A DNA stretch of 64,000 nt from an uncultured Gammaproteobacteria bacterium (GTDB lineage Bacteria; Patescibacteriota; Microgenomatia; UBA1406; GWC2-37-13): contig CAZGZD010000001.1 of the NCBI GenBank assembly GCA_964530005.1, positions 33,541 to 97,540 on the forward strand, written 5' to 3'. Positions within the stretch are counted from its first letter, which is position 1, and every line of letters starts with the position of its first letter. Of the stretch, positions 2,286 through 42,783 are shown piece after piece. The notes under the pieces are model-generated. The model was not told the DNA's origin and ran no database searches. It saw nothing but the letters and a program-made list of their open reading frames with translations. The position numbers and the translations under genes were made by a program.

Positions 2286-2945
2286 ATGAGAAATGTCCTT
2301 GTGTATGCGTCGCTTGTCTTCTTGTTTCTTATTGCAGTTGTAAGTACTGCGTACGGATCTTATGGCCAATATGAACCCACTCCATCGAAAGCTATCCTGA
2401 TCGACAAACAGGTCGCCAAGCCATCTGACGAGAAAGGTGGAGGCAACAGCCAGGACTATGCTGATAATCTTAGTCCCTCTGATCCCCGATTTGTACCAGA
2501 TCAGCATGTATTCTTTAAGCTTATTGTCAAAAATACCTCAGATACTGAGCTTACAGACGTTGAAGTGACAGACTCTGTCCCCGACTTTTTGGTACCAGTC
2601 GCTCATCCTGGCAACTTTGACTCAGACAGCCGTGAGATCACTTTCAATGCTGGCGATTTTGCTATTGATGAGGAAAAGACATATATTCTTGAGATGAAGT
2701 TCGTAGGCGATGGCGATCTGCCAGATGACCACAGCATCACCTGTGTCGTAAACGAAGCTCGAGCCAAATCTGATGATGTTGAAGATGAAGATACAGCGCA
2801 GGCGTGCGTCGAAAAACAGGTCGATGAGGAATCAACAATCGAGACAATACCATCGACAGGTCCTGAGCTTATGGGGCTTGTGGTTGCGGCTGAGATGGCT
2901 ACACTTGGTGCCGGTATCTACCTTAATCGCAAAACTCGAAAATAA
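2286..2945 (+). CDS. Cell-surface protein with N-terminal signal/TM, DUF11-like beta domain and LPXTG-like C-terminal sorting signal
   Basis: 219 aa with a hydrophobic N-terminus (LVFLFLIAVVSTAYG). The C-terminus is IPSTGPE, then a hydrophobic stretch, then RKTRK, which is sortase-substrate architecture. Confidence 0.7.
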   Translation: MRNVLVYASLVFLFLIAVVSTAYGSYGQYEPTPSKAILIDKQVAKPSDEKGGGNSQDYADNLSPSDPRFVPDQHVFFKLIVKNTSDTELTDVEVTDSVPDFLVPVAHPGNFDSDSREITFNAGDFAIDEEKTYILEMKFVGDGDLPDDHSITCVVNEARAKSDDVEDEDTAQACVEKQVDEESTIETIPSTGPELMGLVVAAEMATLGAGIYLNRKTRK

Positions 2946-3112
2946 ACTGATTTAAGAGTACATCTCTCTCCTATATTCTCCATTCTTACGTTATTTTATT
3001 ACCCTCTTCCTAAGTCAACCTCAATCAACTTACAATGTGTAGTGTGTGTAAAAGGGCTTTTGTGCACGTCTTGTGTATAAACAAAAATATGTTGTTGCAG
3101 AAGGGACTATCA

Positions 3113-3141
3113 TTGACTTTAGCCTTAAAATATGCTACACT
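3113..3141 (+). promoter_or_regulatory. Promoter-like TTGACT, 17-nt spacer, TACACT with no ORF behind it
   Basis: -35 at 3113-3118 and -10 at 3136-3141. More than 500 nt of hairpin-rich sequence without a convincing ORF follows. Confidence 0.35.
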
Positions 3142-3539
3142 ATGGGTTAATATTGTGGGGGTAAGGGGGCACTATGCGCGCCACCTATTTATGCCTTTTG
3201 CAGTATTAAGTCAGTCGCTGGTATTGACCCCTTGTATTTGCATACAGGGTGGGAGCTGAAGATCTTAGATATTTATTGTCTAAGGTACGAAGCACTGCGA
3301 TATCGGCCGCACCTTTACATTAAGGGTAGAGATAGTATAGGAGTTGGAGCTTAGCATTTGCTTGCTAAGTGTACGGCCAATATATGAGTCTCAAACAGAA
3401 AAATCAAACCTATTTAGATAAAGTTGTATGGTAGTGAGGGTTGATATTGGGGAGATACTCCTTTCGAAGTACGCGGATGTTTCCATTTTGCAGATAAAGC
3501 TAAAAGCATTGTCTGTAGAGTGGAAACATTCGACAACTA

Positions 3540-4450
3540 AGAGAGGAAAGAGAGGTGACAAAGCAGATCAAGAAGACACGCCGTCGTGGAGGAAACCGAA
3601 CCGAGAAAAGGAACGGAAGAGTCCAAGATGGTCGACGAAGCAAGATCCGAAACACAACCAAGAAAGGCTAGGGTCATCATGACCAAGCGCACCCCCAAGA
3701 CCAGGTGGCTGATCGCCATCCTGGCAACCGCCATGCTGCTGCTCTCCGGCTGCAGCCTGATCGGTAACAACGACGACAGCCCGACGACGACGGCGACCAG
3801 CTCGGCGACCGAGGCCACCACGGCCACGGACGACGGCGGCGGGACGACCGACGTCAGCAGCGACGACCTCGCGCACTTCGTGCCGAGAGAACTCGCCGAG
3901 GGTGAGGAGCTGACCGCGATCGCTGGAACCTGTGTGGAGGGAGACGTCACTGTCATCCTCACTGCAGGAGCCCGACCGGTCTTCGACGATCTCAGCGACA
4001 CGGGGCACCTCACGTGCTTCAACTCGCCGACGAACGTCGTCAGCACATACGCCTCGCACATCAGCGCGGCAACCCGGGACGAGCACGTCAGCAACATGCT
4101 CCACCTTGCGGGCCAGTGCGGTATGCCTCACGGCTGCCCACGCTTGCACGTGTTGGTGTGTGAAGATGGCGCGATCGTCGAAGACTACTGGGCCAACCGG
4201 TAGCAAGTTCGCAAGTTCGCGAACTAACAACTAGAGTTTGTGCTCCAGCCTTCCAGTCTTGAGAGGGTACCATAGCACGTTCTCGTGGAGAGTAGGGATG
4301 ATATTCTGACCCTTGGGAGAATTTTTAGCACGCGTCTTCGGACAAATGCTTAGGATTCGGCTTTATGCCATGTATATGTTCGCTTGATCGCCCGGCTTAC
4401 CCCGCCCCGCGACCCCTCGATCCGTGACCCCCGTCACACATATACATTCC
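3540..4450. other. Compositionally foreign GC-rich segment
   Basis: Long ORFs open in several frames on both strands, a GC-rich signature. Nearly every codon of the 3679-4203 frame ends in G or C, unlike all neighbouring genes. Confidence 0.6.
3679..4203 (+). CDS. Lipoprotein of unknown function with high-GC (actinobacterial-style) codon usage
   Basis: The internal ATG at 3679 of ORF 3586..4203 gives MTKRTPKTRWLIAILATAMLLLSGCSLIG: a basic n-region, a hydrophobic core and an LSGC lipobox. A T/S/D-rich linker follows. GC3 is strikingly high. Confidence 0.65.
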   Translation: MTKRTPKTRWLIAILATAMLLLSGCSLIGNNDDSPTTTATSSATEATTATDDGGGTTDVSSDDLAHFVPRELAEGEELTAIAGTCVEGDVTVILTAGARPVFDDLSDTGHLTCFNSPTNVVSTYASHISAATRDEHVSNMLHLAGQCGMPHGCPRLHVLVCEDGAIVEDYWANR

Positions 4451-4493
4451 CCTCTCCTTAAGCAGTGAGTAATTTACTGGTTGTTTGAGGAGG

Positions 4494-4515
4494 CTGCTCA
4501 AAGTACTTTGAGCAG
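4494..4515. repeat. Perfect 22-bp palindrome ctgctcaaagtactttgagcag
   Basis: Read directly from the sequence. It sits at the right edge of the GC-rich segment, upstream of gene 4632. It could be a hairpin or a dimeric operator. Confidence 0.5.
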
Positions 4516-4631
4516 AATTTATAAAAATTAGTTCTCAATTTTCTGATACTAAGAAATTGTGTCAAGAAAAATATGTCGTATATAAAGTCCGTAGATGCTA
4601 CATTGACAAATTAACAATCATATAGTTCATA

Positions 4632-5357
4632 ATGAGAAAAATCACCAAAAGAAGACGTATATTGAATAGTGACGAAAGCATTATTGTCATCTCCCGCTAC
4701 AGGACCGACACAATCCTTGAATCACAAAAAGCCCTCAAAAAGCTTGCCAAAAAACAGCAAATCCTCGTATTTGCCCAGCGCGCCGGACGAAAAAGGCGCC
4801 ACAGTGAGCCGGACAATCTCACAATCTACCGTCTCTGGACGTGGAATAGGCCATTGTCATTATTTTCGATTATCAAACCTCTCATAAAATACAACAAAGT
4901 CAGAAATATCTTGATCCAGTTTGATTTTCGGACGTTTGGACGGAATTTCAACTCCAATCTTATCGTTCCACTTGTATTATTTCTCCTCAAGATGACCAAC
5001 AAGCGTATCTATTTTGAATTCCATAGCTTTGTGCCTACGCAGCGAATTCGCAAGAATACCCCACTTAAGAAAAAAATTCAAAGACGAATATTCAATATTA
5101 CACTTCAAATACTATATACATATATAAATAGTATGAGCACGAATATCATCGTATTCAAACCATCCCTACGCACATCTCTTGCGGCATTTGTGCCTGAAAG
5201 TCGGATTATCCAACTTCCATCTACTCTTGTTCAGATAAGACGAAGTAAAGCAACTCCAGCGTCCCGAAAAAAGCTCCAGAGGACAGTTGATGACTACAGC
5301 GCAATCATCACCACACCCTACGATATAAGCCAAAGATACTCACTTGGAATTAAATAA
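4632..5357 (+). CDS. Basic hypothetical protein, possibly a half-size (N-terminal Rossmann half) GT4-like glycosyltransferase
   Basis: 241-aa ORF in a codon style like its neighbours, immediately upstream of the large GT-C-like membrane protein. I saw no catalytic EX7E half. Confidence 0.45.
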   Translation: MRKITKRRRILNSDESIIVISRYRTDTILESQKALKKLAKKQQILVFAQRAGRKRRHSEPDNLTIYRLWTWNRPLSLFSIIKPLIKYNKVRNILIQFDFRTFGRNFNSNLIVPLVLFLLKMTNKRIYFEFHSFVPTQRIRKNTPLKKKIQRRIFNITLQILYTYINSMSTNIIVFKPSLRTSLAAFVPESRIIQLPSTLVQIRRSKATPASRKKLQRTVDDYSAIITTPYDISQRYSLGIK

Positions 5358-5384
5358 CCCTCCGCAACAAGTACAATAAATCTT

Positions 5385-8300
5385 ATGAGGCGATTTTTGA
5401 AAAATCACTGGCCACCAGTTGTACTGGTGCTTATCACAATACTACTTTCTGCCCTCAACTACACGCCTGGCACGTATTTGACTGGTTGGGATACGCTTCA
5501 CCCTGAGTTTGATTTTGGCATCAATTTCAAAAGACTTATAAATGGCGTCTGGAGACCAGAGCAAGGGCTAGGCGCAATCGCCGGACATAGCCATATGAGT
5601 GATCTGCCACGGATAATTTTTATGTATTTGATGTCAGCAGTCGCCCCACTATCTTTCTTAAGATATTCCTATGTATTCCTGTGTCTTATACTTGGTCCAC
5701 TTGGCATATATTACCTTATTCGCTATCTGCTTACGAGCTCCGCACACCACCCCCAAAATCTAAAAAAAGATCATATCTCGACAATAGTTGGCTTTCTGGC
5801 TGGGCTTTTGTATATCTTTAATCTGTCAACTGTCCAGATATTTGCGGTGCCTTTTGAGATGTTTCCGACACAATATGCAGCGCTACCTTGGATTATGCTT
5901 TTTTCATTAAAGTTCCTACGAGTCGGAGGCCGGAAGAACCTGCTAATTCTGGCATGCGTGACGCTTATATCCACTCCACAAGCATATGCTGCTCATTTGT
6001 GGATTGCATTCTTCCCGCTCTATGTACTTTTTCTGTGTATGTTCTGGGTCATGCAACCGAAAAAAGAAGTTGCCAAAAGAGGAATTCTACTTATCGTTGT
6101 GACGATTCTGGTCAACTCGTACTGGCTCCTTCCAAATCTCTATTATGATGCTTTCGATTATCAGATTCCTATAGACACAAAGCAAAATAGAATTTTTTCC
6201 CAAGAATACCGAATCAAAAATAGAGAATTTGGATATATCGCAGATGTTTCGATAGTGCGTGGATTTCTTTTTAATTGGGAAATACACGATTTTCAAAAAG
6301 ACAAGAGCGTGCAGCTACTTGAGCCATGGAGACAACACCTGGCGAATCCAATCATACTGATTTTTGAGTATATAGTGAGCATTTTTGCACTCGCCGGAAT
6401 CATCTTGGCAGTTTATAAAAAGAAAAAACTTTTCTTGATATTTATTCCATTTGTCATACTTCCGGTCATATTACTCACAAACAGCACACCGCCTTTTTCC
6501 AATTTTTTTGATTTTCTGATACTCAATCCTCTCCTTCGGGAGACTTTGAGATTTGTATTTACGAAGCTCGCTCATCTTTTATTATTTGCATTAGTAATAT
6601 ACTTCTCACTTGCGTTGAGCATAATGCTCCCCTATCTTACACAACTGAATCGGAGACTTCTAATCGGGCTACTTGTCGTTGGGTTTATTGCTTTTGGCTA
6701 TCCTGCCTATCAAGGCAATCTTATCTCACCAAAACTTCGTATAAATATCCCCCAGAAGTATTTTGACTTCTGGCAGTTTATGAAACATCAAGATGATGGT
6801 GTGGTTCTTTCACTACCCCTGCATGAATTTACAGGTTGGACATTTACTGACTGGGAGTATCAGGGATCAGGCTTTTTGTGGTTTGGACTCAAACAACCGC
6901 TTATCGATCGAGACAACGATCGCTGGAGTAAATCAAATGAGCGGGCGTACCGCGAATTCTGGTATGCGCTCTACTCGCAAAATCCCGCACTTTTTGCCTC
7001 AAATCTGGAGAAATTTAATATTCAATATATAGAAATAGACACAAGTGTGATATCCGAATCAAGAAAAAATGAAAACCAGATAATCTTTACTCGCGAGACA
7101 AATATGTTACTTGATCAACTCGTGAAAAATAAGATTCTGACTAAAATCTACGACACAAGTGGAATACGAGTATATAAAACTAGCAAAAAAAAGTTATATA
7201 TAAGCGCGGTGTCGACTCCTCCCAATGTAGGACCTCCCTACATATGGACATTTGAGGACGAAGCATTTAGGCAATATGGCACATATACCACAAGGCGTCA
7301 AGAAAAAGAGAATGAGGATATTATATATCCATTTCGGGCACATACCATAGTCTCTGATCGACTTTCAAGGGAAAATGTGCACATTGATGAGAGCTCAAAC
7401 AGTCTCTTTATTCCAATTGATAATACAAGCGCATTGAAGACGCTGCTTGTGCCAGAATTCAATCAGACTGAAAGCATAATATATGCAGACTTATATTATG
7501 ATACAAACGCAGTACAAAAAGATAGAATAATCCTCAAACTACTTGTGCCTAATTTATACGACAATATTCGCTATATAGCAGTCAATCCGATAGAGTCTGG
7601 ACAAAATAAGATCACGATAAACGGCAAAGATATATCTTATCCCGCTGGGCTGCATACTTCCTCAAAAACACCCATATATCTATCACATATCGCTCTACTT
7701 ACAAAAAAGCCGAATATGATAAATGGTAAAAAATTCAATCTCTCGCTTTCTTTGAAAAAAACACCAGACTCAATTTTGAGAATTCCTTTATCAAGGGAAA
7801 AAATAGACCTGAAAGCACGTGACATCTATAACCAAAATATAAATGACAAAAATATTTATCTATCTGATAATTCCACTCTGACCATATATGCTAAAAACTC
7901 ATCAACAGGAGTCTTAATCGATCTTAAAAACCTTCACCACTCTACAGGATATATTCTGGTGACTCAATCGGCAAATAAAGAAGGAATACCTTTCAGAGTT
8001 TGCCTCAGAAACCTCTATTCCAAAAACTGTGTGCTCTACGACGAGCTTTCAGCATCAAAATCACTATCGCAGGATGCTTTTCTTATCCCTCCGATGGATC
8101 AAAACTTGGGTTATACGCTTTCATTTGATAGTCTATCATATGGCAGTTACGCTTCAATAAACGAATTGTCGGACGTGACCCTCTATCCTATTCCCTATAA
8201 TTTTCTATCCCAACTTCAACTAATAAACACGCAGAGCCCACCAACCCGAGCCCAAAAAGTATCTTCTGAATTCAAAAAAATAAGCTCGTTTAAATATATA

Positions 8301-8633
8301 GCTCAAGTATCTGCCAAAACAAATAGCTATCTCATCTTTAAACAAAGTTCTCATCCCGGCTGGCTCGCTTTTCAACTCCCGATTTCAGAAAACAAACTTA
8401 CAGAATGGATCTCAAATAGCTTCCCATTCATATTGGGCAAAAGATTAGAACACGTTGAAGTAGATAACTGGGCCAATGGGTGGAAGCTGGAACCAAATAG
8501 TCAAAATCAACTCGTTGTGATTATATTCTGGCCACAATACCTTGAGTTTGCTGGCTTCGGCCTTCTTATCTTGGCAGTTCTCTCTACTCTTTATCTATCA
8601 AAAAAAGAGCTTGTCGTAACTCGTGAAAACTAG
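5385..8633 (+). CDS. Large polytopic membrane protein, GT-C-like (DUF3367/AftD-like) putative glycosyltransferase
   Basis: 1082 aa with more than 10 hydrophobic helices in the first ~480 aa. The first-loop motif is GWDTLHPEFDFGINFKRLINGVWRPEQGLG. A large soluble C-terminal part ends in a terminal TM helix. Confidence 0.6.
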   Translation: MRRFLKNHWPPVVLVLITILLSALNYTPGTYLTGWDTLHPEFDFGINFKRLINGVWRPEQGLGAIAGHSHMSDLPRIIFMYLMSAVAPLSFLRYSYVFLCLILGPLGIYYLIRYLLTSSAHHPQNLKKDHISTIVGFLAGLLYIFNLSTVQIFAVPFEMFPTQYAALPWIMLFSLKFLRVGGRKNLLILACVTLISTPQAYAAHLWIAFFPLYVLFLCMFWVMQPKKEVAKRGILLIVVTILVNSYWLLPNLYYDAFDYQIPIDTKQNRIFSQEYRIKNREFGYIADVSIVRGFLFNWEIHDFQKDKSVQLLEPWRQHLANPIILIFEYIVSIFALAGIILAVYKKKKLFLIFIPFVILPVILLTNSTPPFSNFFDFLILNPLLRETLRFVFTKLAHLLLFALVIYFSLALSIMLPYLTQLNRRLLIGLLVVGFIAFGYPAYQGNLISPKLRINIPQKYFDFWQFMKHQDDGVVLSLPLHEFTGWTFTDWEYQGSGFLWFGLKQPLIDRDNDRWSKSNERAYREFWYALYSQNPALFASNLEKFNIQYIEIDTSVISESRKNENQIIFTRETNMLLDQLVKNKILTKIYDTSGIRVYKTSKKKLYISAVSTPPNVGPPYIWTFEDEAFRQYGTYTTRRQEKENEDIIYPFRAHTIVSDRLSRENVHIDESSNSLFIPIDNTSALKTLLVPEFNQTESIIYADLYYDTNAVQKDRIILKLLVPNLYDNIRYIAVNPIESGQNKITINGKDISYPAGLHTSSKTPIYLSHIALLTKKPNMINGKKFNLSLSLKKTPDSILRIPLSREKIDLKARDIYNQNINDKNIYLSDNSTLTIYAKNSSTGVLIDLKNLHHSTGYILVTQSANKEGIPFRVCLRNLYSKNCVLYDELSASKSLSQDAFLIPPMDQNLGYTLSFDSLSYGSYASINELSDVTLYPIPYNFLSQLQLINTQSPPTRAQKVSSEFKKISSFKYIAQVSAKTNSYLIFKQSSHPGWLAFQLPISENKLTEWISNSFPFILGKRLEHVEVDNWANGWKLEPNSQNQLVVIIFWPQYLEFAGFGLLILAVLSTLYLSKKELVVTREN

Positions 8634-10818
8634 TACAAATTGGTATACTGAATTTATGTCTACACTTGTCCACCTTCACGTCAAAAATCCCAAAGATGAT
8701 GAGACGCCGATTGAGTCGGCTGTACAGATTTTTGCGTCCCTTTTGCCACGTGACTACTACCCCATTGCAAAACGCGCAATATTCCCCTACCCGATCTATG
8801 CTTTTGAGATATATCTTTTGCAACAAACTGTATATTTCTATATCACGTGTGAAGCGCGGCAGGAGACATTAGTTAAAAGCCTTGTGACGGCGGCATTTCC
8901 AACAGCAGTCGTGACAAAGACAACAGATCCAATGACACTTGTGACTAGTCAAAAAAATATTGTGCTCGGTGAAGAGGTGCTAAATGCCGCCTACATGTAC
9001 CCCGTAAAGACATATTTGGATTATGAGGATGTTGATCCACTCGCATCCCTTGTCGGTTTCTTGGGTCGACAACCGAGAGACATACAAGCTGCAGTGCAGA
9101 TTGCACTCAAACCAGCATCATTCCCATGGGCAGCGCGCGCGATGTCGAAAGCCAAGGCTATGTTCCATGATGTGCCAGCCGACAAATACACACATAACCC
9201 CGAGTATCGAACCATATCTCGCAAGGCTGCATTTCAGGGTGGTAAAGCATGTATACGCATCGTAGTATCGTCCAACACACACAGCTCACTTGGCTCCACG
9301 CTTCACAATCTTGGTGGTACATTCGGAAGCTTCTCACTTGGTGAAGGAAACCAATTCATATTCAGACGTCGCTACACGACACCTCAAATCCTCCTTTCTA
9401 GAATAAAGACACGCACAATTCGACCTCACGAACGACACAACCAAATTCTGAATGCTCAGGAGCTAGCAACTATTTGGCATCCCCCAGGATTTCTGCTAGC
9501 TGGTGTAAAAAATATCACATGGGGAAAAACTCTAAAGGGAGAGCCACCCGAAAGCCTACCTGTCGTGGACTCTGTCAAAAAGAAAGAAGATGTTAATTTT
9601 TTCGCAAAGTGTGAGTTCAGAAATAAAAATCAGATATTTGGCATAAAGACGGAGGATCGCCGCAAACATATTTATGTGATTGGTAAGACAGGTGCCGGTA
9701 AGTCTACACTTATTGCCAATATGGCAATTGATGATATACGACGCGGACGAGGTATCGGCATCATTGATCCACACGGAGATCTATCAAATATAATCCTTGA
9801 TTACATTCCACGCCGCCGAATGCGCGACGTCGTATACCTTGAGCCCTTTGATACTACGCGTCCCTTTTCACTCAATGTTTTAGAGGTCAAAAATAAGCAG
9901 CACCGCGACCTTGTAGCCTCTGGAATTGTCTCAATATTTAATAAGATTTATGGCGAAAGCTGGGGACCGCGACTTGAGTATATTTTACGAAACTGTATTC
10001 TCACACTCCTTGAAGTGGAGGGGTGCACGTTGCCAGATATCCTTAAGCTTTTGGCGGATAAGAACTTTCGTGACAAGACAGTGGCGAAGCTTACCGACCC
10101 AGTACTATCTGATTTTTGGACCAAAGAATTTGCCAAGATGCCCGACAACTTGCGAGCTGAAGCCATATCGCCAATTCAAAATAAGGTAGGCCAGTTCGTC
10201 TCCTCTCGTATGATCCGCAATATTATAGGTGAGCCAAAATCAAGTATTGACTTACAAAAAATTATGGATGAGGGAAAAATTCTCATTCTCAATCTTTCCC
10301 AAGGCAAGCTCGGCGAGGATAATGCGGCCCTTCTTGGTGCGATGATTATCACCCAAATTCAACTTGCCGCTATGAACCGGGCATATGTAGATGAGGACGC
10401 ACGGCGTGATTTTTTCTTATATGTTGATGAGTTTCAGAATTTTGCAACAACAAGCTTTATAAAGATTTTGTCTGAAGCTCGCAAATATCGCCTCTCACTT
10501 ACTCTTGCGAATCAGTACATCGAGCAGATCGAGGAAGATGTGACTAAAGCTATATTTGGCAATGTTGGAACTCTGATAACGTTTGTGATTGGAGCACGGG
10601 ATGCATATCCTTTGTCTAAAGAATACTCTGAGCTCTATACTGAGGGCGACCTTGTCTCACTTGGCAAGTATGAGATTGTGCTCAAGCTATCAGTTGATGG
10701 ACAGACATCAGCCCCATTCCCAGCTACAACAGTACCTTTGCCATCGCTTCGCAATGAAAACAGCAAAAATATAATCAAGCTCTCAAAAGAAAAATTCGGG
10801 AGAGCTGTAAAAAGTTGA
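8623..10818 (+). CDS. VirD4/TraG/TraD-like (type IV coupling protein-like) P-loop ATPase with a CPR-type N-terminal domain
   Basis: 731 aa with Walker A VIGKTGAGKST and Walker B/DEXX LYVDEFQNF, followed by ARKYRLSLTLANQY. An alternative ATG at 8656 would remove the 11-nt overlap with the upstream gene. Confidence 0.75.
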   Translation: MKTSTNWYTEFMSTLVHLHVKNPKDDETPIESAVQIFASLLPRDYYPIAKRAIFPYPIYAFEIYLLQQTVYFYITCEARQETLVKSLVTAAFPTAVVTKTTDPMTLVTSQKNIVLGEEVLNAAYMYPVKTYLDYEDVDPLASLVGFLGRQPRDIQAAVQIALKPASFPWAARAMSKAKAMFHDVPADKYTHNPEYRTISRKAAFQGGKACIRIVVSSNTHSSLGSTLHNLGGTFGSFSLGEGNQFIFRRRYTTPQILLSRIKTRTIRPHERHNQILNAQELATIWHPPGFLLAGVKNITWGKTLKGEPPESLPVVDSVKKKEDVNFFAKCEFRNKNQIFGIKTEDRRKHIYVIGKTGAGKSTLIANMAIDDIRRGRGIGIIDPHGDLSNIILDYIPRRRMRDVVYLEPFDTTRPFSLNVLEVKNKQHRDLVASGIVSIFNKIYGESWGPRLEYILRNCILTLLEVEGCTLPDILKLLADKNFRDKTVAKLTDPVLSDFWTKEFAKMPDNLRAEAISPIQNKVGQFVSSRMIRNIIGEPKSSIDLQKIMDEGKILILNLSQGKLGEDNAALLGAMIITQIQLAAMNRAYVDEDARRDFFLYVDEFQNFATTSFIKILSEARKYRLSLTLANQYIEQIEEDVTKAIFGNVGTLITFVIGARDAYPLSKEYSELYTEGDLVSLGKYEIVLKLSVDGQTSAPFPATTVPLPSLRNENSKNIIKLSKEKFGRAVKS

Positions 10819-10992
10819 TTCCACTTTTAAAATATCTTACCATCCAAATATTGGGATCTCAATAGCTTGAGCTTACTGGCCTCGGATTAATTCTTCTCCA
10901 TTCAGGGTATTTTCTAGCTACGAAACGTAGTACTTTTAAAAGAAAATAATATTTAGTTGACTTCTTCTTTTTATCTATTGTATATTTACAAT

Positions 10993-11706
10993 ATGTCTTT
11001 ACCACCAAAAGAGGGACCTAAAATACCTCCTATAGCCCCCGGCACTGTTGATCGTCCTATAAGTAAGCCTGCAGCACCACCTGATCTTGAAGCAGTAAGA
11101 CTTGCTGGTGGCATTAATCAAGCTCTTGATAGTCAATCTACAGTTGATCCAGATAGTCTTATTTCTGGTGTAGCAGACTCTACTGCAACGCGGGTAGATA
11201 CAGGAAGTACTAAAAGTCCGACTTCTGGTGACGAAGAATTTCTCAAAAACGGCGATATTCTAAATTACAACCCATTTAATCGATTAGATCGGGGTTTTCA
11301 AGACCTTCAACAGTTCGATAGAAAACACAGACAATTAATAGAGGAAATGACAAGTCGGGGTGAACCAATAGATCCCGCATTTGAGGAAAGACAGAATCTC
11401 ATCAGGGCCCAATTTGTAGCTGCGCTTGAAGTAGCAAGGAAAGAGGCGCCATCACCCCTTATTGAATCAGACCAAATTCCGTCTAGATTTGACTCAATAA
11501 GATTTGATCTTATTGGAGGAAATTGGTTCATAAAAGGAGATATGAGAGAGGTCGCAACCGCAATCTTAAGATATTCAGGAGATCAAATAAGATTTGAGCC
11601 AAACTCTGGTCCAGAAGGTGGAATTAAAGTCGTTGGTCAAAATCCAGGTGATGTAGCTGATATGGCTGGTGACCTTGCAAGACTAACTCTTCTATCTAAA
11701 GAGTAA
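10993..11706 (+). CDS. Hypothetical protein with a proline-rich N-terminus
   Basis: The ATG at 10993 lies inside TTG-initiated ORF 10957..11706. The protein begins MSLPPKEGPKIPPIAPGTVDRP and has no Sec signal. Confidence 0.6.
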   Translation: MSLPPKEGPKIPPIAPGTVDRPISKPAAPPDLEAVRLAGGINQALDSQSTVDPDSLISGVADSTATRVDTGSTKSPTSGDEEFLKNGDILNYNPFNRLDRGFQDLQQFDRKHRQLIEEMTSRGEPIDPAFEERQNLIRAQFVAALEVARKEAPSPLIESDQIPSRFDSIRFDLIGGNWFIKGDMREVATAILRYSGDQIRFEPNSGPEGGIKVVGQNPGDVADMAGDLARLTLLSKE

Positions 11707-11784
11707 GCAGCCTGTAGCTCCAGCAGAAACCCCTTGAGGATATTTATCTAAAAGATGTAGAGCTTTTTCCTTTATCTCACTTCA

Positions 11785-11814
11785 TTGACAACTCTACAAA
11801 ACTACACTTATAAT
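11785..11814 (+). promoter_or_regulatory. Consensus promoter TTGACA, 18-nt spacer, TATAAT, placed for a leaderless mRNA
   Basis: -35 at 11785-11790 and -10 at 11809-11814. ATG codons at 11820 and 11823 lie 6-9 nt after the -10. Confidence 0.6.
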
Positions 11815-11819
11815 GAATA

Positions 11820-12146
11820 ATGATGGCAATAACTGATGAATATATAAAGCAAATAAAGGTTGATTTTCTTCATCAGCTATCCGAACTTTTACGGACTGGG
11901 AATATGCCACTTGAGAATGCACGTGATATCTGCCGACAATTTAAGACATACAATCCATTCACGACATTTGAAGATCTCAAAACCAAAATCAAAGCATTCA
12001 CTCAAAAATATACTGAATTTGGCAAGATGTATACTAAGATTCTACGAGATGAGGAAAAGTATCGCACAAGTACTGTGCTTACTAAGATGCAGAGCCTCAT
12101 CGGCACTGGCAATATAGATCAAGCATTACAAGTAGCCAAAACATAA
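11820..12146 (+). CDS. Small helical hypothetical protein, first gene of a duplicated two-gene module
   Basis: 108 aa. Its stop is 3 nt before the next ATG. In size and position it parallels 44463..44906. Confidence 0.6.
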   Translation: MMAITDEYIKQIKVDFLHQLSELLRTGNMPLENARDICRQFKTYNPFTTFEDLKTKIKAFTQKYTEFGKMYTKILRDEEKYRTSTVLTKMQSLIGTGNIDQALQVAKT

Positions 12147-12149
12147 TTT

Positions 12150-13253
12150 ATGTCATCTATCATTGCGGCTCGACCAGGCATTGACACCCCTCCAGGAGCA
12201 GGTGTACCAAAGGAAGGAGCCCCCCCACCCCCAATTGGAGGTCCAAGGCCGGAGAGTACGCCTCCCACTGCGTCTGATTTTGGTGTTGAGACGACTCGAA
12301 CCCCTGCTGAACGGGCTAAAGACCAAGTAAAAGTAGCAGATGCAATTCTAGATGCTGTAAGAGATGACCCTAGTGGTGTGATTGATGTTTTGGCACATGG
12401 AGGAGCAACACCGATTAGTACTGAAGGTGTCAGTACAAAACCTGATACAAGAAAAGTGGCTGATCTTGAGACAGAACGTGCTGAAATTGCAAAAAGATAC
12501 AAAGATGGAAAACACACAGCTGATGACATATTTAGATTATCAGAAATTGATTCAGAGATTAAAGTTGCAAATAGTGCAGATGAATCTCGACCAGCTGCTA
12601 CAGACGAATCTACTCGATCAACACCTGCAGAAACCACAACGGCAGAACGAACCTCTCCATTATCGGAACTAAATAAAAGAATAGATGAGCTAACCGACAA
12701 AAAAAAGCTCACACCGGATGAAAAAACAGAACTAACTCAACTGGTTGCAGTCAAAGGAGAATATCAAAAAAGCATGTCGAATGAATTTATGGGTGCTTTA
12801 AAAAACTTAGGAGTAAATGGCTTAACCGAGCTCTCTATTGATCTTGTCAGATATTATATAACTCAGTATCCAGCAGGCTCAAAAGAACGCGTCGCTATGG
12901 AGCAAGCTCTCTCTACACTCAATCAAAAAAAAGCCATACAAGAAGCGGCCGGTACATATACCATATCAGATGAGGAAAAAGCCGCCTTACTCAAAGCAAA
13001 GGCTGACTATAACGAACTTGATGATAGCCAACGAGGTTCTTGGGCGGCATTTTTACTTGCTAATCAAGAAAAACAGTATAAAGATGGATCGAATGAACAA
13101 AAAACTCTGCACAGAGCCACCAGTATTCTTGAAAATAAAAAAAGTCACAGGATGGCTAAAGCTCTTGGAGTTTTGGGCCTTGCTGGTATTCTTGTAGCAC
13201 TAATTGCTCGAATGGCAAATAAAGCAAACTCTGGTGGTCAACAACAGGGTTAG
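12150..13253 (+). CDS. Pro-rich-N-terminus, coiled-coil, C-terminally tail-anchored membrane protein
   Basis: 367 aa. The N-terminus is ...TPPGAGVPKEGAPPPPIGGPRPESTPP and an internal motif reads DDPSGVIDVLAHGG. The C-terminus GVLGLAGILVALIARMANKANSGGQQQG is a single terminal TM plus a basic/Q-rich tail. Confidence 0.7.
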   Translation: MSSIIAARPGIDTPPGAGVPKEGAPPPPIGGPRPESTPPTASDFGVETTRTPAERAKDQVKVADAILDAVRDDPSGVIDVLAHGGATPISTEGVSTKPDTRKVADLETERAEIAKRYKDGKHTADDIFRLSEIDSEIKVANSADESRPAATDESTRSTPAETTTAERTSPLSELNKRIDELTDKKKLTPDEKTELTQLVAVKGEYQKSMSNEFMGALKNLGVNGLTELSIDLVRYYITQYPAGSKERVAMEQALSTLNQKKAIQEAAGTYTISDEEKAALLKAKADYNELDDSQRGSWAAFLLANQEKQYKDGSNEQKTLHRATSILENKKSHRMAKALGVLGLAGILVALIARMANKANSGGQQQG

Positions 13254-13271
13254 TGTGAGAAGACTTACACT
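13252..13271. terminator. Hairpin between convergent genes (possible bidirectional terminator)
   Basis: Stem agtgtga / ttacact (7 bp including one G:U pair) with a 6-nt loop. It overlaps both stop codons and has no U-tract. Confidence 0.3.
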
Positions 13272-13537
13272 CAAAGATCTTTCTTCCTCTTCCTATCCTT
13301 GATATTTTTAAGTGCGCTGGCGAGGATCGCGGAGACGAAAGTCACAAGCACTGGCGACTGCTTCCCTACCCACCCACTCGCGCGGGATACCGCGTCGAAT
13401 CCGTCCTTAAAACGATTTACCTGCCGCTTAAATCTTAGATAATACGCAATAAAGACCCACAAGATAGCAAACACAATGATGATTGATATCGTGAAGTAGA
13501 CAATGCCAAGTATGAGAAAGATATTCTGAACATCCAT
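13271..13537 (-). CDS. Small membrane protein
   Basis: 88 aa with a hydrophobic N-terminal helix (IFLILGIVYFTISIIIVFAILWVFIAYY), a second hydrophobic segment and a basic tail. Confidence 0.55.
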   Translation of the reverse strand: MDVQNIFLILGIVYFTISIIIVFAILWVFIAYYLRFKRQVNRFKDGFDAVSRASGWVGKQSPVLVTFVSAILASALKNIKDRKRKKDL

Positions 13538-13555
13538 AACGTATATTTTAGAAGT

Positions 13556-13996
13556 TTACTTCTTCTTTGTGGCTTTCTTCGCTACTGAGACTACTCGCTT
13601 AGCGTCAGATTGAAGTTGCTTTTTAAGTTTGATGAGCGCAGCTTGTGTGTATTTTGCGTCTTTCTTGAACGTGGAGACAACATCTGCCACTATTTTTTCA
13701 TAATTATCTCGTTTTATTGTGCCAGTACCTTTTTTAAACTCTTTGACCCGAGCGTCAACGTCACTTTTAGCCTTTTTATATAAATCTTTAGCATCGCCAG
13801 ATACTTTAGATGTGAGTTTTTTGATGTCGCGCTTTATCTCTCCGCTTTTTACCTTTTTCTCTATCGTTCGAGCCGCATTTTTTATATCCTCACGAGTCTT
13901 TTTGCCTGTTTTGGGAGCAAAAAGTATGCCAGCTATCGCGCCGGCTGCTGCACCCAATGCTACTCCAAGTCCCAATCCTGATTTTTTCTTTGCCAT
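13556..13996 (-). CDS. YtxH domain protein
   Basis: 146 aa. A Gly/Ala-rich N-terminal helix plus FAPKTGKKTREDIK is characteristic of YtxH. The remainder is a Lys-rich helical region. Confidence 0.7.
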   Translation of the reverse strand: MAKKKSGLGLGVALGAAAGAIAGILFAPKTGKKTREDIKNAARTIEKKVKSGEIKRDIKKLTSKVSGDAKDLYKKAKSDVDARVKEFKKGTGTIKRDNYEKIVADVVSTFKKDAKYTQAALIKLKKQLQSDAKRVVSVAKKATKKK

Positions 13997-14113
13997 AAGT
14001 TCTATGTTAACAGTAGCTACTGGGGTAAGTCAAGTTCAATTTAAAGCAACTTACTTTTCAACCAAACCTTTCTATAAACTTATAGACTACTATTACAAGC
14101 CATATACATCAAC

Positions 14114-15334
14114 CTATGCTTGTGTAAGTTGGCGCTCAACAACAGTCATCCCAAACTCTTTCGCTTTACTCCTAACTGTTTGCATTATATTGCCAATTGT
14201 TTCGTCTGATATTCCCAATTCTCGTCCACTTGAATAAGCCTCATTAAGCTGAAAATCTGGTTCTTCCGGATTCTCGTTGAGCGTTCTACGAAGTGCAGCT
14301 GTAAAACGATCTATATTAGCAGTTGCACTCTTCATTTTACCCTCATCTCTACTTTTAAGTGCACTTGACGCCGCCTCTCGCAACGCTTTCTTAAGAGGAT
14401 CCCCACCCAATACCATCGAACTTAAGTGATCATCTTGGATATCATGACCATAATATCCTATTTCGCCAACTGACACAGGATACTGACCCTCGGCAAAAGC
14501 CTGAAGGTAATCTGAATACTCCAACTTTCCTTTTTCCACCTCACCTCGTCGACCTGTAAGTAGCTTTATTTTTACTCCCAATTTTGCCGCAGCTTTTTTA
14601 ATTGTTTCAGGAGTGGGGACACCCACAATACGATATCCGTAATCAAATCCATCAATTACAACATGCTTTATTGCATACCCCAATTTTCCCATGAGAATAT
14701 GAGCATCGCCTGTGTGCAAATTTATAGATGCTCCATAAAATGCATCAATGTTTATTGACATTCCATCCGGTGTAGCGGTTGCGATTATTTTTCTCTCCGA
14801 ATTACTTCCACGATCTTTTATCACAAATTCTCCCTCTGGTATCTTGTCTAATGCTTGAGGGATCAGCATTGCCCGTTGTAAAAATACCTCAGCTTCTAAA
14901 CCCTGCGCATCAGGCGAACCAATCGGATCAATCCCTTCAGGCAAATCAGTTTCATATACCTTGTCGCCGATCATTATCTCTCGATTTATCTTCTCAGTCT
15001 GAGATTCTACTGTCGAAAAATCAGCGGGCTTCCTTGTTGTAGCTTCTTGTAACGCGACTTCTGCGGCCTCAGTATCTGGGGCTTTTGCCATATTAGACGG
15101 CGATGCTTCCAGACCCTCCTCGGGTGTGGGAGTCCGCACCTCAACTGGTTGACCTTCGCCTGCTAATATATCTATTACAGCATCTGGATCATGCTCTCCC
15201 CGCTTAAGTAGCCGATCTGCCAACATTCTCAAACGTCCTCGAATACCTGGAGATTGTTCAGTAGATGGTGGTGCTGGCTCGCGGGTAGGAAGTGGTGCAG
15301 TTTCTGATCGTGGAATTACAGGTACTTCTGGCAT
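14114..15334 (-). CDS. Hypothetical protein with an MPEVP Pro-rich N-terminus and a DPDAVIDILAGEG motif
   Basis: 406-aa ORF beginning MPEVPVIPRSETAPLPTREPAPP. It has no Sec signal and I recognise no catalytic family. Confidence 0.65.
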   Translation of the reverse strand: MPEVPVIPRSETAPLPTREPAPPSTEQSPGIRGRLRMLADRLLKRGEHDPDAVIDILAGEGQPVEVRTPTPEEGLEASPSNMAKAPDTEAAEVALQEATTRKPADFSTVESQTEKINREIMIGDKVYETDLPEGIDPIGSPDAQGLEAEVFLQRAMLIPQALDKIPEGEFVIKDRGSNSERKIIATATPDGMSINIDAFYGASINLHTGDAHILMGKLGYAIKHVVIDGFDYGYRIVGVPTPETIKKAAAKLGVKIKLLTGRRGEVEKGKLEYSDYLQAFAEGQYPVSVGEIGYYGHDIQDDHLSSMVLGGDPLKKALREAASSALKSRDEGKMKSATANIDRFTAALRRTLNENPEEPDFQLNEAYSSGRELGISDETIGNIMQTVRSKAKEFGMTVVERQLTQA

Positions 15335-15417
15335 GGGTTGATTTGGGGTAACTGAGGAACCTAGACTTAATTATGAAGAAGCTGGGAAGGTTAGTCAACC
15401 TGAATTTTATAATCCAG

Positions 15418-16323
15418 CTATACTGGTCCAACCAGTTGCGCTGGAGAATTGCGGTATTTGGTTTTGGTATTCGTCTCGAACATATGCCATGCAGAGTGAC
15501 CAGGCTTATTCTTTGCAGCTGACTTAAATACAAACACATCTCCCACTCCACCTGTTTCTTCATGCCAGGTTGGACTGATAAATCGGGTATCTACCTTTTC
15601 TTCAACAAGACCCTCTAAGATAGCTTTACCTAAATCTGTGTATTTTAGTGTAGTTAGAGATTCATCTTCGCCTGGATTTGCAAAGGTTGCTTTGAACTCA
15701 CCTTCAGTCGTCGTATGAATATTTACCAACCCCTCCCCATCTTGCAACAAAAATGCTAGAGACGAACTATCTCTATGCCAGCCTAAATCATTTTTCGTAC
15801 CCCGAACCCTCACATTTGCAGCCTCTTTATGGCTTTTAATTACCCGACTATCATCCTGAGCCTGTAGGTGCCTGATAATAAACTTTCGAACAGCCTCCAC
15901 CTTCTGCTCTGGAGTCATTGACGCATAATCTTCTCCTTCATCAAGTTGCAGCTTGGAACCATCAATCTTAAAACCAGGTATTTCATCAGCTTTCAATTTT
16001 AGCAATGCCTGATCAAGCTCTTCTCCATTGGTCACCACCTCCATATCTACTCGACGTGCCTCAACCAATCTGAGGTGCTCTGCACTCTTGTCTGATAGAT
16101 GTGACTTGTCAAAAGGCTGCGTGTCTGATGTCTTAGCACCTCCTCCTAGCGCTGAGATAGTAGCATCAGGGTCTTGAGAAGCTCTTAGTCTCAACTTATC
16201 TGCAAACTTTCTCCATATTCCTCTTCTTGCAATAGCTTGTTTACCTTGTGGTGATTGCTGAGTACGATCAACAGTTTTTCTCACAATCTCTTTTGAAGGG
16301 TGCGGATGTGGGGCTTCTGGCAT
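15418..16323 (-). CDS. Hypothetical protein with an MPEAP Pro-rich N-terminus and a DPDATISALGGG motif
   Basis: I prefer the ATG at 16323 to the TTG at 16341 used by the ORF track. That start gives MPEAPHPHPSKE, parallel to the neighbouring gene. Confidence 0.6.
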   Translation of the reverse strand: MPEAPHPHPSKEIVRKTVDRTQQSPQGKQAIARRGIWRKFADKLRLRASQDPDATISALGGGAKTSDTQPFDKSHLSDKSAEHLRLVEARRVDMEVVTNGEELDQALLKLKADEIPGFKIDGSKLQLDEGEDYASMTPEQKVEAVRKFIIRHLQAQDDSRVIKSHKEAANVRVRGTKNDLGWHRDSSSLAFLLQDGEGLVNIHTTTEGEFKATFANPGEDESLTTLKYTDLGKAILEGLVEEKVDTRFISPTWHEETGGVGDVFVFKSAAKNKPGHSAWHMFETNTKTKYRNSPAQLVGPV

Positions 16324-16354
16324 AGACTTAGTATGAAGCAAGCTAAACTAAGAA

Positions 16355-17131
16355 TCAAATCTTTATATCTTTATACTTAAGAACCCAGACCTTCACATAT
16401 ATCACCCAGAAACGGATGGCGGAAAAGAGTGCAAACACAAATCCAGGGAATCCATCCACATACCCCGAGTGGCGAAAATATGCCTTGAGGAACCAATGGA
16501 TAGGCTTAATCACGAAGTAAATGAAGCCATTGGGCTTTATGTCTTTTTTGACGAGAAGTGCGGCCTCACTGGTCGTGTACCGATCCCAACGAAGTAGATA
16601 TCTTGAGAAGTCTGGGTCCGCATAGTGAAGAATATCGCTTGTGAGATGACCGACTTCGCCCTTCACCTCTACATTCTCATGCACATCGCGACATGGGAAG
16701 TGCGCCACTCCGCGCCTGTAGAGCCGGATTGTATAGTCTGGATACTGCCCACCCTTGCTAAGAAATCTATTGAGGAATAAATTCCGTCGTGGAATCCAAT
16801 AGGCTACAGCATCTCCTTCTTTATACCCACCTATTATCTTCTGAATTTCAGCGCTTAGCTCATCGGTCAGCGCCTCGTCGGCATCAAGCTGCAAGATCCA
16901 CTCGCCGCGCGCTGCATCTATGGCTTTTTGCTTGTTAATATGGAACATCGCCGGATTATCTGTGCGGATGACCTTCACCTTTGACCCATAACCTTCAGCA
17001 ACTTTGATCGTATTATCCTCAGATTCCCCGTCAACAATAATTACCTCACTCACAATATCTATGGCCGAGTCAAGCGGATAATGCAAGTTTTTTTCTTCGT
17101 TGTGGACGGCAATACAGAGCGTAAGCTTCAT
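16355..17131 (-). CDS. Glycosyltransferase family 2
   Basis: 258 aa with LTLCIAVHNEEKNL, IIVDGESEDNT and LQLDADE (DxD). Confidence 0.85.
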   Translation of the reverse strand: MKLTLCIAVHNEEKNLHYPLDSAIDIVSEVIIVDGESEDNTIKVAEGYGSKVKVIRTDNPAMFHINKQKAIDAARGEWILQLDADEALTDELSAEIQKIIGGYKEGDAVAYWIPRRNLFLNRFLSKGGQYPDYTIRLYRRGVAHFPCRDVHENVEVKGEVGHLTSDILHYADPDFSRYLLRWDRYTTSEAALLVKKDIKPNGFIYFVIKPIHWFLKAYFRHSGYVDGFPGFVFALFSAIRFWVIYVKVWVLKYKDIKI

Positions 17132-26113: not shown

Positions 26114-26332
26114 ATGTCGGACTCACTCAAAAGAAGCGCAAAAGTATCACTCTCCGATCTTCCAGATCTGATGACGATTCGAGAGGTAGCAGATCTCCTG
26201 CGTGTATCCCCACTTACCATAAAGCGCTGGGGCAAGCGCGGCAAGCTTCCGGCAATTCGTATCAACTCCCGTGGCGACCGTCGCTACAAAAAAGAGGTCG
26301 TCGAACGACTCCTAGGTGTAGAGCAAGAATAA
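26114..26332 (+). CDS. Excisionase/MerR-like helix-turn-helix DNA-binding protein
   Basis: 72 aa. MTIREVADLLRVSPLTIKRWGKRGKLPAIRI fits the HTH_17/excisionase-type motif. Confidence 0.8.
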   Translation: MSDSLKRSAKVSLSDLPDLMTIREVADLLRVSPLTIKRWGKRGKLPAIRINSRGDRRYKKEVVERLLGVEQE

Positions 26333-26373
26333 AGCCTCCATACTCAATTCTGCTTTAAATTAATCCTATAATA

Positions 26374-26382
26374 TGCTATAAT
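26374..26382 (+). promoter_or_regulatory. Extended -10 promoter TGcTATAAT
   Basis: TG at 26374-26375 and TATAAT at 26377-26382. The ATG at 26388 lies 5 nt after the -10, so the mRNA is probably leaderless. Confidence 0.5.
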
Positions 26383-26387
26383 TCCGC

Positions 26388-27872
26388 ATGGCAGAAAGAA
26401 TATTGCGAGAAGTGCGATTTGCAGCTGAGCCTCTCGCCTATCAACAACCTTCCCATGGATTCCAGGCTAGACTACTTCTGGGCAAACGCACGCTTGATCC
26501 ACAGCATCAGGTTGAGGGTGAGATGAAATCTGAGCATTTTGCGACCATTGCGCAGCATGATTACTCACCATTTGAGCGCACATCTCAGGCTGAGCGCAGC
26601 GAATACTGGAACAGTCAGCGCGTTGAGTCAAATGCGCAGGTTGATGCGTGGACTAGCCAACTTGTAAATATTTTTGCGCATCATCAGGATTTTTTCACGA
26701 CCACTGAGGAAGGCCAACGAAGGACACAGTTTCTTGCACAAATAGGAATTGACGCGGCAAACTTCGATTCAGATACTGCACAAAGTATCTACCAAACCTT
26801 TTTTGGAGAAGGCGTTGATGATTCTCTCAAACTATATACCAACATAGTGCTCAGTCTTCATATAGATGAAGGGTCTGGGATGATAGATCAAGCAAGACTC
26901 ACAGATAGCCTTCCAGAAATACTGTGGTTTGCTAGTATATTCGGTGAGAACTCATCCCATATAGTGACTCAGCTCATTGAAGCCGAAACAGCGCTTCAGA
27001 CTGATCGAGATATTTTTATAGAAAGAGGTAACGCTGAAATAAATAATCTCTCAGATTACGAAACGAGTCTGCTTAATTTTGTTATGCAACATGGGTATCG
27101 AGAAGAAGAAGCAAGTCAGGATGATAATCCAAATAGTGTCGCACGTGCAGAAGATTTAGAGCCACAGGAGGTTGCTGAAAGACTTATAGACTACACAACG
27201 GGCAGGCCAACCGGTGAGAAGGTAGATATGTCACAGTCTTTTCCCCAGTTTGTCGAGCTTATTGAAGAACTGGCAGAGCACGAACCTTTGGTCCAGGAAA
27301 AAGCACTCTTGCTTATTACTGACGATACAGCTGCAATGATAGACCGTATAGCACAAGAGGCCAATGATCGCGATCGAGAACTCGGATTTGTTATACGAGG
27401 AGTACATCTTATGCAGGACCCTGGTGATAAAAGATATCTCATCGGAGGATATGTTGCCCCTGCTATGGACTTTGCCACAGCCAAACGAGGTACTACTACC
27501 ACCGATCCTGAATTTGAGCTCGCAAACGCTACTGCTCTCACGCAGAATACGCAACTAACAGAATACCTTGAGGGCAAAGCTGGAATAGATGTGGGCAAAC
27601 TTGTCCTTGTCGGACACATACACCAGGAGGGACTGGGCAAGCACTGGCACACAGAACCGTCTCAGCAAGACTACGAGCAAGTAGAACAGACATTACGCGA
27701 GCGTGGTGGGTCATACCCCTGGGCTGTAGTGACCAAAGCGGATGGCCAGCTTGGAATGCGTGTTTTCTATAGCTATCTGAGAGATGGTGAAGTTCAACAT
27801 GACGAGATTCCATTCACCACCGAATCGGGTATATATCAGATGCTCCAACAAGGCCAGAGAGATGCTGCGTAA
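26388..27872 (+). CDS. Hypothetical protein with a C-terminal JAB/MPN (JAMM)-like metalloprotease domain
   Basis: 494 aa. The C-terminal region reads ELGFVIRG...LVLVGHIHQEGLGKHWHTEPSQQD, which fits E...HxH...SxxD. I do not recognise the N-terminal ~330 aa. Confidence 0.55.
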   Translation: MAERILREVRFAAEPLAYQQPSHGFQARLLLGKRTLDPQHQVEGEMKSEHFATIAQHDYSPFERTSQAERSEYWNSQRVESNAQVDAWTSQLVNIFAHHQDFFTTTEEGQRRTQFLAQIGIDAANFDSDTAQSIYQTFFGEGVDDSLKLYTNIVLSLHIDEGSGMIDQARLTDSLPEILWFASIFGENSSHIVTQLIEAETALQTDRDIFIERGNAEINNLSDYETSLLNFVMQHGYREEEASQDDNPNSVARAEDLEPQEVAERLIDYTTGRPTGEKVDMSQSFPQFVELIEELAEHEPLVQEKALLLITDDTAAMIDRIAQEANDRDRELGFVIRGVHLMQDPGDKRYLIGGYVAPAMDFATAKRGTTTTDPEFELANATALTQNTQLTEYLEGKAGIDVGKLVLVGHIHQEGLGKHWHTEPSQQDYEQVEQTLRERGGSYPWAVVTKADGQLGMRVFYSYLRDGEVQHDEIPFTTESGIYQMLQQGQRDAA

Positions 27873-27944
27873 AAATGACCTTCGTTGACATTACTTCTAC
27901 TCTCGTGCTATCTTTAGACTAAAGTATAGATTTTTATTGTTAAA

Positions 27945-29387: not shown

Positions 29388-29391
29388 TTCC

Positions 29392-31083: not shown

Positions 31084-31103
31084 GTGAATTAGAGATGCTT
31101 AAT

Positions 31104-42308: not shown

Positions 42309-42323
42309 TTTAAATAATTTTTT

Positions 42324-42755
42324 TTAATTTACAATCTTCTGATTCTTCGCAATATATTTATCCACAGTCATTCCGGTATTACTTGGCTTATTTCTTTCTA
42401 ATACTACACCGCGAAGATATGTATCGCGAAAATCTCCGAAAAGATCTGTAAAGACTTGCTGAGCGTCAGGCAATTTATCCTGAAGAAACTTCTCAACTTC
42501 AGCCTGCGGCTTACCATCTTCATTCATCTTTACGAACTCTTCGACATATTCATCTGGTAATCTATCTACAATAACGGAAATGATATAGCTATCAAGGCGC
42601 ACAAATAGCTCCTTTATCATCTCCTCATGACTCGCCTCATCAAGAGTCACCGCACCGGCGTCGACGAGGATGCTCTCAAGATACGCACGAACATCTGGGG
42701 TAATCTCCAGAGGTTTTTTCTCTGCAGCTTGGGCTGCTTGTTGTACATCTGCCAT
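42324..42755 (-). CDS. DUF5663-like small helical protein
   Basis: 143 aa. The pattern EEMIKELFVRLDSYIISVIVDRLPDEYVEEFVKMNEDGKPQAEVEKFLQDKLPDAQQVF resembles the Patescibacteria DUF5663 family. This is recalled, not searched. Confidence 0.5.
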   Translation of the reverse strand: MADVQQAAQAAEKKPLEITPDVRAYLESILVDAGAVTLDEASHEEMIKELFVRLDSYIISVIVDRLPDEYVEEFVKMNEDGKPQAEVEKFLQDKLPDAQQVFTDLFGDFRDTYLRGVVLERNKPSNTGMTVDKYIAKNQKIVN

Positions 42756-42783
42756 AGACTTTTAAATAATTAATAATAAATAA

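Follow-up and report, generated by a model that had tools for sequence, protein, structure and literature searches.

The Xanthomonas VirD4-interacting protein conserved domain (XVIPCD) of the X-Tfe type IV effectors, a C-terminal segment of about 120 residues, is widespread in Xanthomonadales. Substrates of type VII secretion systems (T7SS) of the LXG and PE-PPE types have a conserved N-terminal helical region of 100-200 residues ahead of polymorphic C-terminal parts, with small helical partners (Lap, EspG) encoded just upstream and an FtsK/HerA-superfamily ATPase nearby, while the docking domains of polyketide synthases and nonribosomal peptide synthetases (PKS/NRPS) and the RII-alpha D/D-type handles are very short helical hairpins on flexible terminal tethers that fold on binding and unite neighbouring gene products. 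Here we describe a core of 35-40 residues shared by neighbouring orphan genes in a genome of Patescibacteria type (G000; 959 kb, 41 contigs). The window, the whole stretch of 64,000 nucleotides (nt) analysed, is G000:C1:33541-97540, and all positions below are numbered within it. Seven genes lie there between a gene for an ATPase resembling type IV coupling proteins (T4CP-like) and one for a GT2 glycosyltransferase (16355-17131); three of them encode the module proteins p367, p406 and p307, and p249 is probably a fourth. Our leading reading, held tentatively and with rather less than even confidence, is that a locally duplicated 5' gene segment encodes a flexible handle that would fold on binding, its candidate partners being first p108, a small helical protein encoded in the same run of genes, and second the ATPase.

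A short core between dissimilar leaders and C-terminal parts

The original prediction had quoted motif strings from p367, p406 and p307 and had read them as a portable N-terminal module of about 60 amino acids (aa) in proteins otherwise unalike. All three strings are exact in the sequence and lie in long open reading frames (ORFs) where they had been placed. BLASTP links p367 to p406 (E=7e-6) and p406 to p307 (E=2e-6) and gives no significant match between p367 and p307, which makes p406 the hub of the sequence-similarity network. We then cut the proteins into leader, core and linker and compared each segment by Smith-Waterman alignment with 500 composition-preserving shuffles. The core alone (35-39 aa) gives z=11.3 for p406-p307 and z=7.2 for p367-p406, scores that no shuffle reaches (0/500 for each pair), and z=3.5 for p367-p307 (3/500). 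The Pro-rich leaders stay at z<1.5 and are alike in composition only, the 90 aa past the core show a weak likeness in two pairs (z about 3), with weaker similarity extending to about residue 110-145 in the p406-p307 and p367-p406 alignments, and beyond residue 100 the scores are noise (z<1). Leave-one-out hidden Markov models (HMMs), searched against the 10,349 six-frame ORFs of G000, return the omitted protein as the top non-training match (E=3e-4, 0.018 and 0.22), in agreement with the predicted profile similarity among the segments. We conclude from the sequences that p367, p406 and p307 are similar beyond chance; a discrete N-terminal unit with dissimilar remainders is borne out, at a core length of 35-40 aa in place of about 60.

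The core is made up of an amphipathic helix, an invariant Asp-Pro, a short hydrophobic element (VIDxL, TISAL or LISGV) and a Gly-rich turn. The paralogues are 30-37% identical, and the 5' ends of their genes show no DNA-level repeats or recent recombination past one 19-nt match of chance size. Low-confidence AlphaFold single-sequence models of p406 and p307 render the core as helix-DP-helix with coil on either side; a Foldseek search of the PDB with the p406 model yields nothing below E=0.68, and PDB sequence searches are empty for both proteins. All four proteins lack Cys altogether, and none begins with a hydrophobic stretch of the kind seen in Sec, Tat or lipoprotein signals; outside the C-terminal transmembrane (TM) segment of p367, a tail anchor, the 19-residue hydropathy maximum is below 0.9 in all of them.

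Membership of p249 is less firmly placed. It carries STVDPDSLISGVAD at an equal distance behind a Pro-rich leader. When the motif pattern is loosened, it matches the complete six-frame translation of G000 at four places, all within this locus, and p249 is the fourth. As about 4 matches are expected by chance genome-wide in shuffled sequence, it is position and not count that matters, and a chance match would fall in an adjacent gene's N-terminus with a probability of about 0.003. The p249 alignment itself is marginal (z 2-3; BLASTP E=0.014 to p367 without composition correction), and the leave-one-out HMM does not recover the protein. On this sequence evidence we regard p249 as a probable fourth member. 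The weaker version that had been proposed for a giant protein encoded further along the window does not hold up: IFLAADPATLSAREL is present there, but it reaches a profile score of 0.3 bits with the DP not aligned, and the protein is rejected as a member. Other G000 proteins with Pro-rich leaders or MPE starts show no likeness past their first residues. A match of p367 in genome G206, to a helical stretch of a 483-aa protein whose C-terminus, read by eye, is presumably PEP-utilising-enzyme-like, is judged compositional.

The core recurs nowhere else that we looked. The module profile finds only the four proteins in their own genome and has no match in 60 relatives including a genome of the same genus or in 223 genomes of the order. 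Viral contigs yield nothing, and a word-indexed search of 5.8 billion clusters returns only the proteins themselves. An exhaustive profile search of 1.84 billion representative proteins returns the four proteins and 14 long repeat proteins; the five of these that were read are NHL-type beta-propellers with the repeat RIRRVDPSGxIxTxAGxG, and the NHL-type matches listed carry 4-12 weak stretches each, against one copy of the module per protein. A reciprocal repeat-unit HMM does not retrieve the four proteins (best p367, E=9.7, rank 15), so we take the NHL likeness to be that of a look-alike and not of a relative; an NHL-repeat origin is rejected, there being no Pfam NHL match either. When species genomes are scanned with the pattern, the only motif to emerge is GRLxLADAL...DPDAVID of M17 leucyl-aminopeptidases, from two Actinomycetota metagenome-assembled genomes; this origin is rejected as well, the likeness being local (24 residues, 67% identity) and Pfam Peptidase_M17 giving no match. 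None of the four N-terminal cores is covered by a Pfam, NCBIfam, PHROG or PADLOC family at E<=0.1; p249, p406 and p307 have zero matches, p367 has two, far below threshold and to its helical middle, and Pfam LXG, PE, PPE and WXG100 do not match. By these searches the motif is private to one species, known from one strain-level population. "Portable", in the sense of recurring elsewhere, is thus a description that G000, the 223 order genomes and the public protein sets contradict. The original prediction had named two outcomes that would count against it, a lack of profile similarity among the segments and a lack of further occurrences in the genome and public proteomes; it is the second of these that we find.

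Indel islands and a conserved two-gene cassette

The genome of a sister species in the same genus (G001) is colinear with the window at 86-95% nt identity, and the peptide deformylase is 99% identical between the two. Three blocks of the window are absent or replaced in G001 (about 2914-13284, 13997-16383 and 26328-45047), the flanks of the first two being 91-95% identical. In the first, the stretch from the ATPase through p249 and p108 to p367 is missing, and two other orphans (112 aa and 266 aa) stand in its place; these lie at L031 6856-8004 (G001:C2), where the 266-aa gene overlaps the end of a gene for a GT-C-like membrane protein. The second, which holds p406 and p307, is replaced by 65 bp. 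The p88/YtxH pair between these two species-specific blocks is conserved in G001 (91.6% nt identity). The third block is the cassette of the giant protein, likewise missing; its HldC-IMPase gene is absent from the 60 relatives. Pro-rich leaders, defined as at least 7 Pro within the first 40 residues, are rare (10 of 914 G000 genes). Contig C1 carries seven of these genes, and six of the seven (p249, p367, p406, p480, p563 and the giant protein) fall within blocks that G001 lacks.

p108 belongs to a family of proteins of about 105-130 aa, with homologues in 62 of the 223 genomes of the order and in 16 of 400 other genomes sampled across the phylum. It has no Pfam or PDB relative, and kinship with DUF5663 is rejected at an hhalign probability of 0.2%. 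In 43 of the 49 loci read, the gene that follows a p108 homologue encodes a hypervariable protein with an Ala/Pro/Glu-rich, low-complexity N-terminus, and in 39 of those 43 it starts within about 25 nt of the homologue's stop; 26 of the partners are interlinked by phmmer, and 12 of 32 complete partner proteins have a tail-anchor TM segment as p367 does. From the gene order and sequences, the p108 family and its variable partner constitute a conserved two-gene cassette, patchy across the phylum and undescribed as far as Pfam, NCBIfam and PDB go.

p367 fits this definition, as it lies directly downstream of a p108-family gene, with a gap of 3 nt from the p108 stop to the p367 ATG. One p108-type gene adjoins the module genes. 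The sole other family member in G000, p147, is diverged (E=4.5e-9 to the p108-family profile) and overlaps p560 at the latter's start. The tails of p560 and p367 match (E=0.002), and hhalign finds no module in p560; this second cassette sits just upstream of a DUF5663 gene and the giant gene. A tail-anchor HMM built from the 12 partners does not retrieve p367. Several partners of p108 homologues elsewhere show a likeness to the module by eye (e.g. STDPKSALEGLAAG), but pattern count, module HMM and partner-block HMM do no better than on reversed sequences, and conservation of the module outside the species is therefore not claimed.

A proposed binding handle and its rivals

On the reading that we tentatively prefer, the four genes would be species-restricted paralogues, arisen by local copying of a 5' segment of no fewer than 60 initial codons, extending in places to about 110-145, that now lie in two indel islands flanking the conserved p88/YtxH pair. 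Their products would carry an element of 35-40 residues between a flexible Pro-rich leader and a flexible linker, followed by four unrelated C-terminal parts; Asp-Pro may cap a helix, with a short hydrophobic helix or strand and a Gly-rich turn after it. Because the element is too small to fold alone, because a hydrophobic export signal is lacking and because p367 is tail-anchored with its bulk in the cytoplasm, we propose that it is a handle that folds on binding, and that it may recruit four differing cargo domains to a single shared partner on the membrane's cytoplasmic face. As such a partner p108 is the most plausible: its gene appears to share a transcript with p367 and to be coupled to it in translation, and there is a single close p108 copy to serve the four module proteins. 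The T4CP-like ATPase next door would be a weaker candidate. That a small helical protein might be the partner had been suggested in the original prediction, and the conserved family and the coupling to one module protein are in keeping with it; the binding we infer.

Several observations weigh against this proposal. For p249, p406 and p307 there is no separate p108 gene, nor do they occupy the partner slot, and p367 is tied to the partner family by position, architecture and weak matches (L069, E=0.0076 in a 47-sequence set, and the p560 tail at the value given above). The module profile scores the partners in other genomes no better than their reversed sequences, and in the other direction a partner-derived profile misses all four proteins. 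The structure models have mean pLDDT values of 43 (p406) and 37 (p307), which is low confidence. The six public contigs compared are 100% identical at the DNA level, and the eight single-residue variants recorded are too few for a selection test.

A narrower form of the proposal, which we consider doubtful, is that the core is the client-side recognition peptide of the p108 family, which would be a small helical adaptor or chaperone made together, in every case, with a hypervariable and often tail-anchored partner, and that it was copied here onto three further proteins. If true, this would be a case of one adaptor with four clients, suited to working out the function of the cassette, for example the membrane delivery of tail-anchored or envelope-associated proteins, and a p108-binding peptide would be the first functional handle on it.

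Of the rivals to the fold-on-binding handle, the one that survives best, although we hold it to be somewhat unlikely, is a neutral relic: fast-diverging local duplicates in which the core is simply the part not yet decayed and has no module function. All four proteins are orphans, restricted to one species and absent from its sister, and their G+C content at third codon positions lies below that of conserved neighbours (0.22-0.33 vs 0.35-0.51); the weak p406-p307 and p367-p406 alignments that run on past the core are, moreover, what decayed whole-segment duplicates would leave. Uniform decay would not, however, give a similarity peak as sharp as that of the 35-40-aa core (z 7-11), with leaders and C-terminal parts at noise. 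The C-terminal parts are of unequal length and have distinct predicted architectures (coiled coil plus TM vs alpha/beta). At 30-37% identity the paralogues must also be old relative to the divergence from the sister species, and yet four intact ORFs remain.

A second rival, by analogy with the XVIPCD that marks type IV secretion system (T4SS) toxins of Xanthomonas, takes the core as a recruitment signal for the T4CP-like ATPase and the Patescibacteria T4SS, and the four proteins as its substrates or effectors. The ATPase gene is directly upstream, none of the four proteins has a Sec-type signal, and on contig C23 a VirB4 (CD1110 family, 391 bits) together with a TrsD-like ORF indicates that G000 has a T4SS. 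Near VirB4 (G000:C23:11214-16688) lies a 371-aa ORF that shares 26% identity with the N-domain of the ATPase (aa 13-303) and is probably the TrsD-type protein described for the Patescibacteria T4SS; the ATPase also matches phrog_5156 (E=1e-69), and its orthologue group is patchy among relatives. Patescibacteria have thousands of T4CP homologues, mostly distant from virB4 and with their role open (PMC12102498), which speaks for this rival; in Southlakia, however, the T4SS genes are essential for epibiotic growth and the distant t4cp is not (PMC12102498). The sister species lacks both an ATPase orthologue at this site and all module genes, and G000 vs G001 is the only comparison in which ATPase and module are seen to come and go together. 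Many relatives have orthologues of 58-68% identity, which adjoin YtxH in two cases, but in more than 10 related genomes the genes beside them bear no relation to the module genes and the module is nowhere in the genome. In G008, G009, G039 and G043 the p108 cassette is on other contigs than the ATPase, and a general link of the module to the VirD4-like ATPase, one of the partners that had been suggested, is not supported. The slot beside the ATPase is moreover a variable region in which adjacency may be accidental, established T4CP signals are C-terminal or internal, and the tail anchor of p367 is ill-suited to an exported substrate. Adjacency and the one shared presence/absence are all that supports this second rival, which we think improbable; setting it aside removes the tempting but unsupported idea of signal-tagged substrates of a Patescibacteria T4CP.

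Chance or compositional likeness, or a degenerate fragment of an NHL-type blade or M17 motif, is very improbable and largely refuted, in spite of the low-complexity leaders and of the NHL-type proteins and M17 peptidases that the database scans yield, since shuffles never reach the core scores of p406-p307 and p367-p406, the NHL repeat-unit HMM and the two Pfam families (E<0.1) fail to connect with the four proteins, and all motif matches in the genome fall in adjacent genes at an equal distance from the start.

Gene layout and comparison with described systems

The features of the locus are listed in Table 1. All four module genes score best in the annotated frame by the genome's own codon usage, and three of the four transcription units (p249, p406 and the p108-p367 unit) have promoter-like sites directly at their starts. 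For p249 this is TTGACT-18-TATATT at 10957-10986, with the ATG 6 nt further on. The TTG at 10957, where a mechanical ORF list begins a 249-aa ORF, opens the -35 box of this promoter-like site, and the protein is therefore 237 aa, in line with the public gene calls (p249 237 aa, p367 367 aa, p307 301 aa). A perfect TTGACA-18-TATAAT at 11785-11814 ends 5 nt before the ATG of p108, and TTGACT-17-CATAAT at 15398-15370 lies about 35 nt 5' of that of p406. Public calls for p406 differ, 406 aa in NCBI/ENA vs 370 aa (start M37) in some Logan calls; we prefer the longer form because the shorter cuts a helix conserved with p307 and p367. Upstream of p307 a weak -35/-10 is visible by eye and absent from the promoter scan list; its start is most likely the ATG at 16323 (MPEAPHPH) and not the TTG at 16341.

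Table 1. Positions and make-up of the genes discussed, in window coordinates
Feature	Position	Strand	Description
T4CP (VirD4/TrwB)-like ATPase	8623-10818	+	Pfam TrwB_AAD_bind, DUF87, TraG-D_C; TrsD/VirB4-N-like N-domain
p249	10993-11706	+	Pro-rich leader; core aa 29-62 (nt 11077-11178), LAGGINQAL...DPDSLISGVAD; probable fourth, weakest member
p108	11820-12146	+	small helical protein; conserved uncharacterised family; candidate module partner; 5' of p367
p367	12150-13253	+	Pro-rich leader aa 1-47; core aa 48-86 (nt 12291-12407); helical middle; C-terminal tail-anchor TM aa 335-353
p88	13271-13537	-	TM protein
YtxH-like	13556-13996	-	Pfam YtxH
p406	14114-15334	-	Pro-rich leader; core aa 27-61 (nt 15152-15256); disordered linker; orphan alpha/beta part; C-terminal helical bundle
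p307	15418-16323	-	core aa 25-62 (nt 16138-16251); orphan C-terminal part
Second cassette	42784-44906	-	p147 (44463-44906, p108 family), then p560 (42784-44466, Pro-rich start, tail-anchored)

Some features of G000 starts at large were seen alongside. Shine-Dalgarno-like sites accompany only about 5% of genes. In about 40% a TAnnnT hexamer lies 4-9 nt ahead of the ATG, an arrangement that looks leaderless. The start ATGCCAGAAG (Met-Pro-Glu) occurs five times in the genome, p406 and p307 among them. Two otherwise unrelated proteins, at G000:C1:7821 (-) and G000:C7:26793 (+), both open with MPEGxGExxPRV(L/I)...DP, one of them with a GGDEF motif (RLGGDEF), and may represent another short common N-terminal string.

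By itself the motif, private to one uncultured species, has small reach. It suggests how orphan genes may originate in the hypervariable islands of ultra-small bacteria, by copying of a 5' segment and swapping of the rest, and it leads to the unannotated p108 cassette, which is present in more than a quarter of the order's genomes.

Like XVIPCD, the core is one conserved segment in neighbouring proteins whose functional parts are unrelated, in a genome with a T4CP-like ATPase and a T4SS; unlike XVIPCD, it is N-terminal (residues about 25-86), 35-40 aa long and confined to one species, and the link to the ATPase fails in relatives. With the LXG and PE-PPE substrates of T7SS it has in common a conserved, helical N-terminal region, polymorphic C-terminal parts, a small helical protein encoded just upstream and an ATPase of the FtsK/HerA superfamily nearby, but the core here is far shorter than those domains and matches none of the corresponding Pfam families, and T7SS core genes were not seen, although no search was aimed at them. 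The resemblance to PKS/NRPS docking domains and RII-alpha D/D-type handles lies in the very short helical hairpin on a flexible terminal tether that would fold on binding and unite neighbouring gene products; there is no sequence relation, the proteins are orphans and not megasynthase subunits, and binding is here a proposal. The p108-family cassette differs in that the module is undetectable in the partners of other genomes and in p560, and in that three of the four module proteins stand outside the partner slot; it is like our locus in that p367 occupies that slot, translationally coupled and with a low-complexity N-terminus and a tail anchor, and in that the cassette occurs once more within the window.

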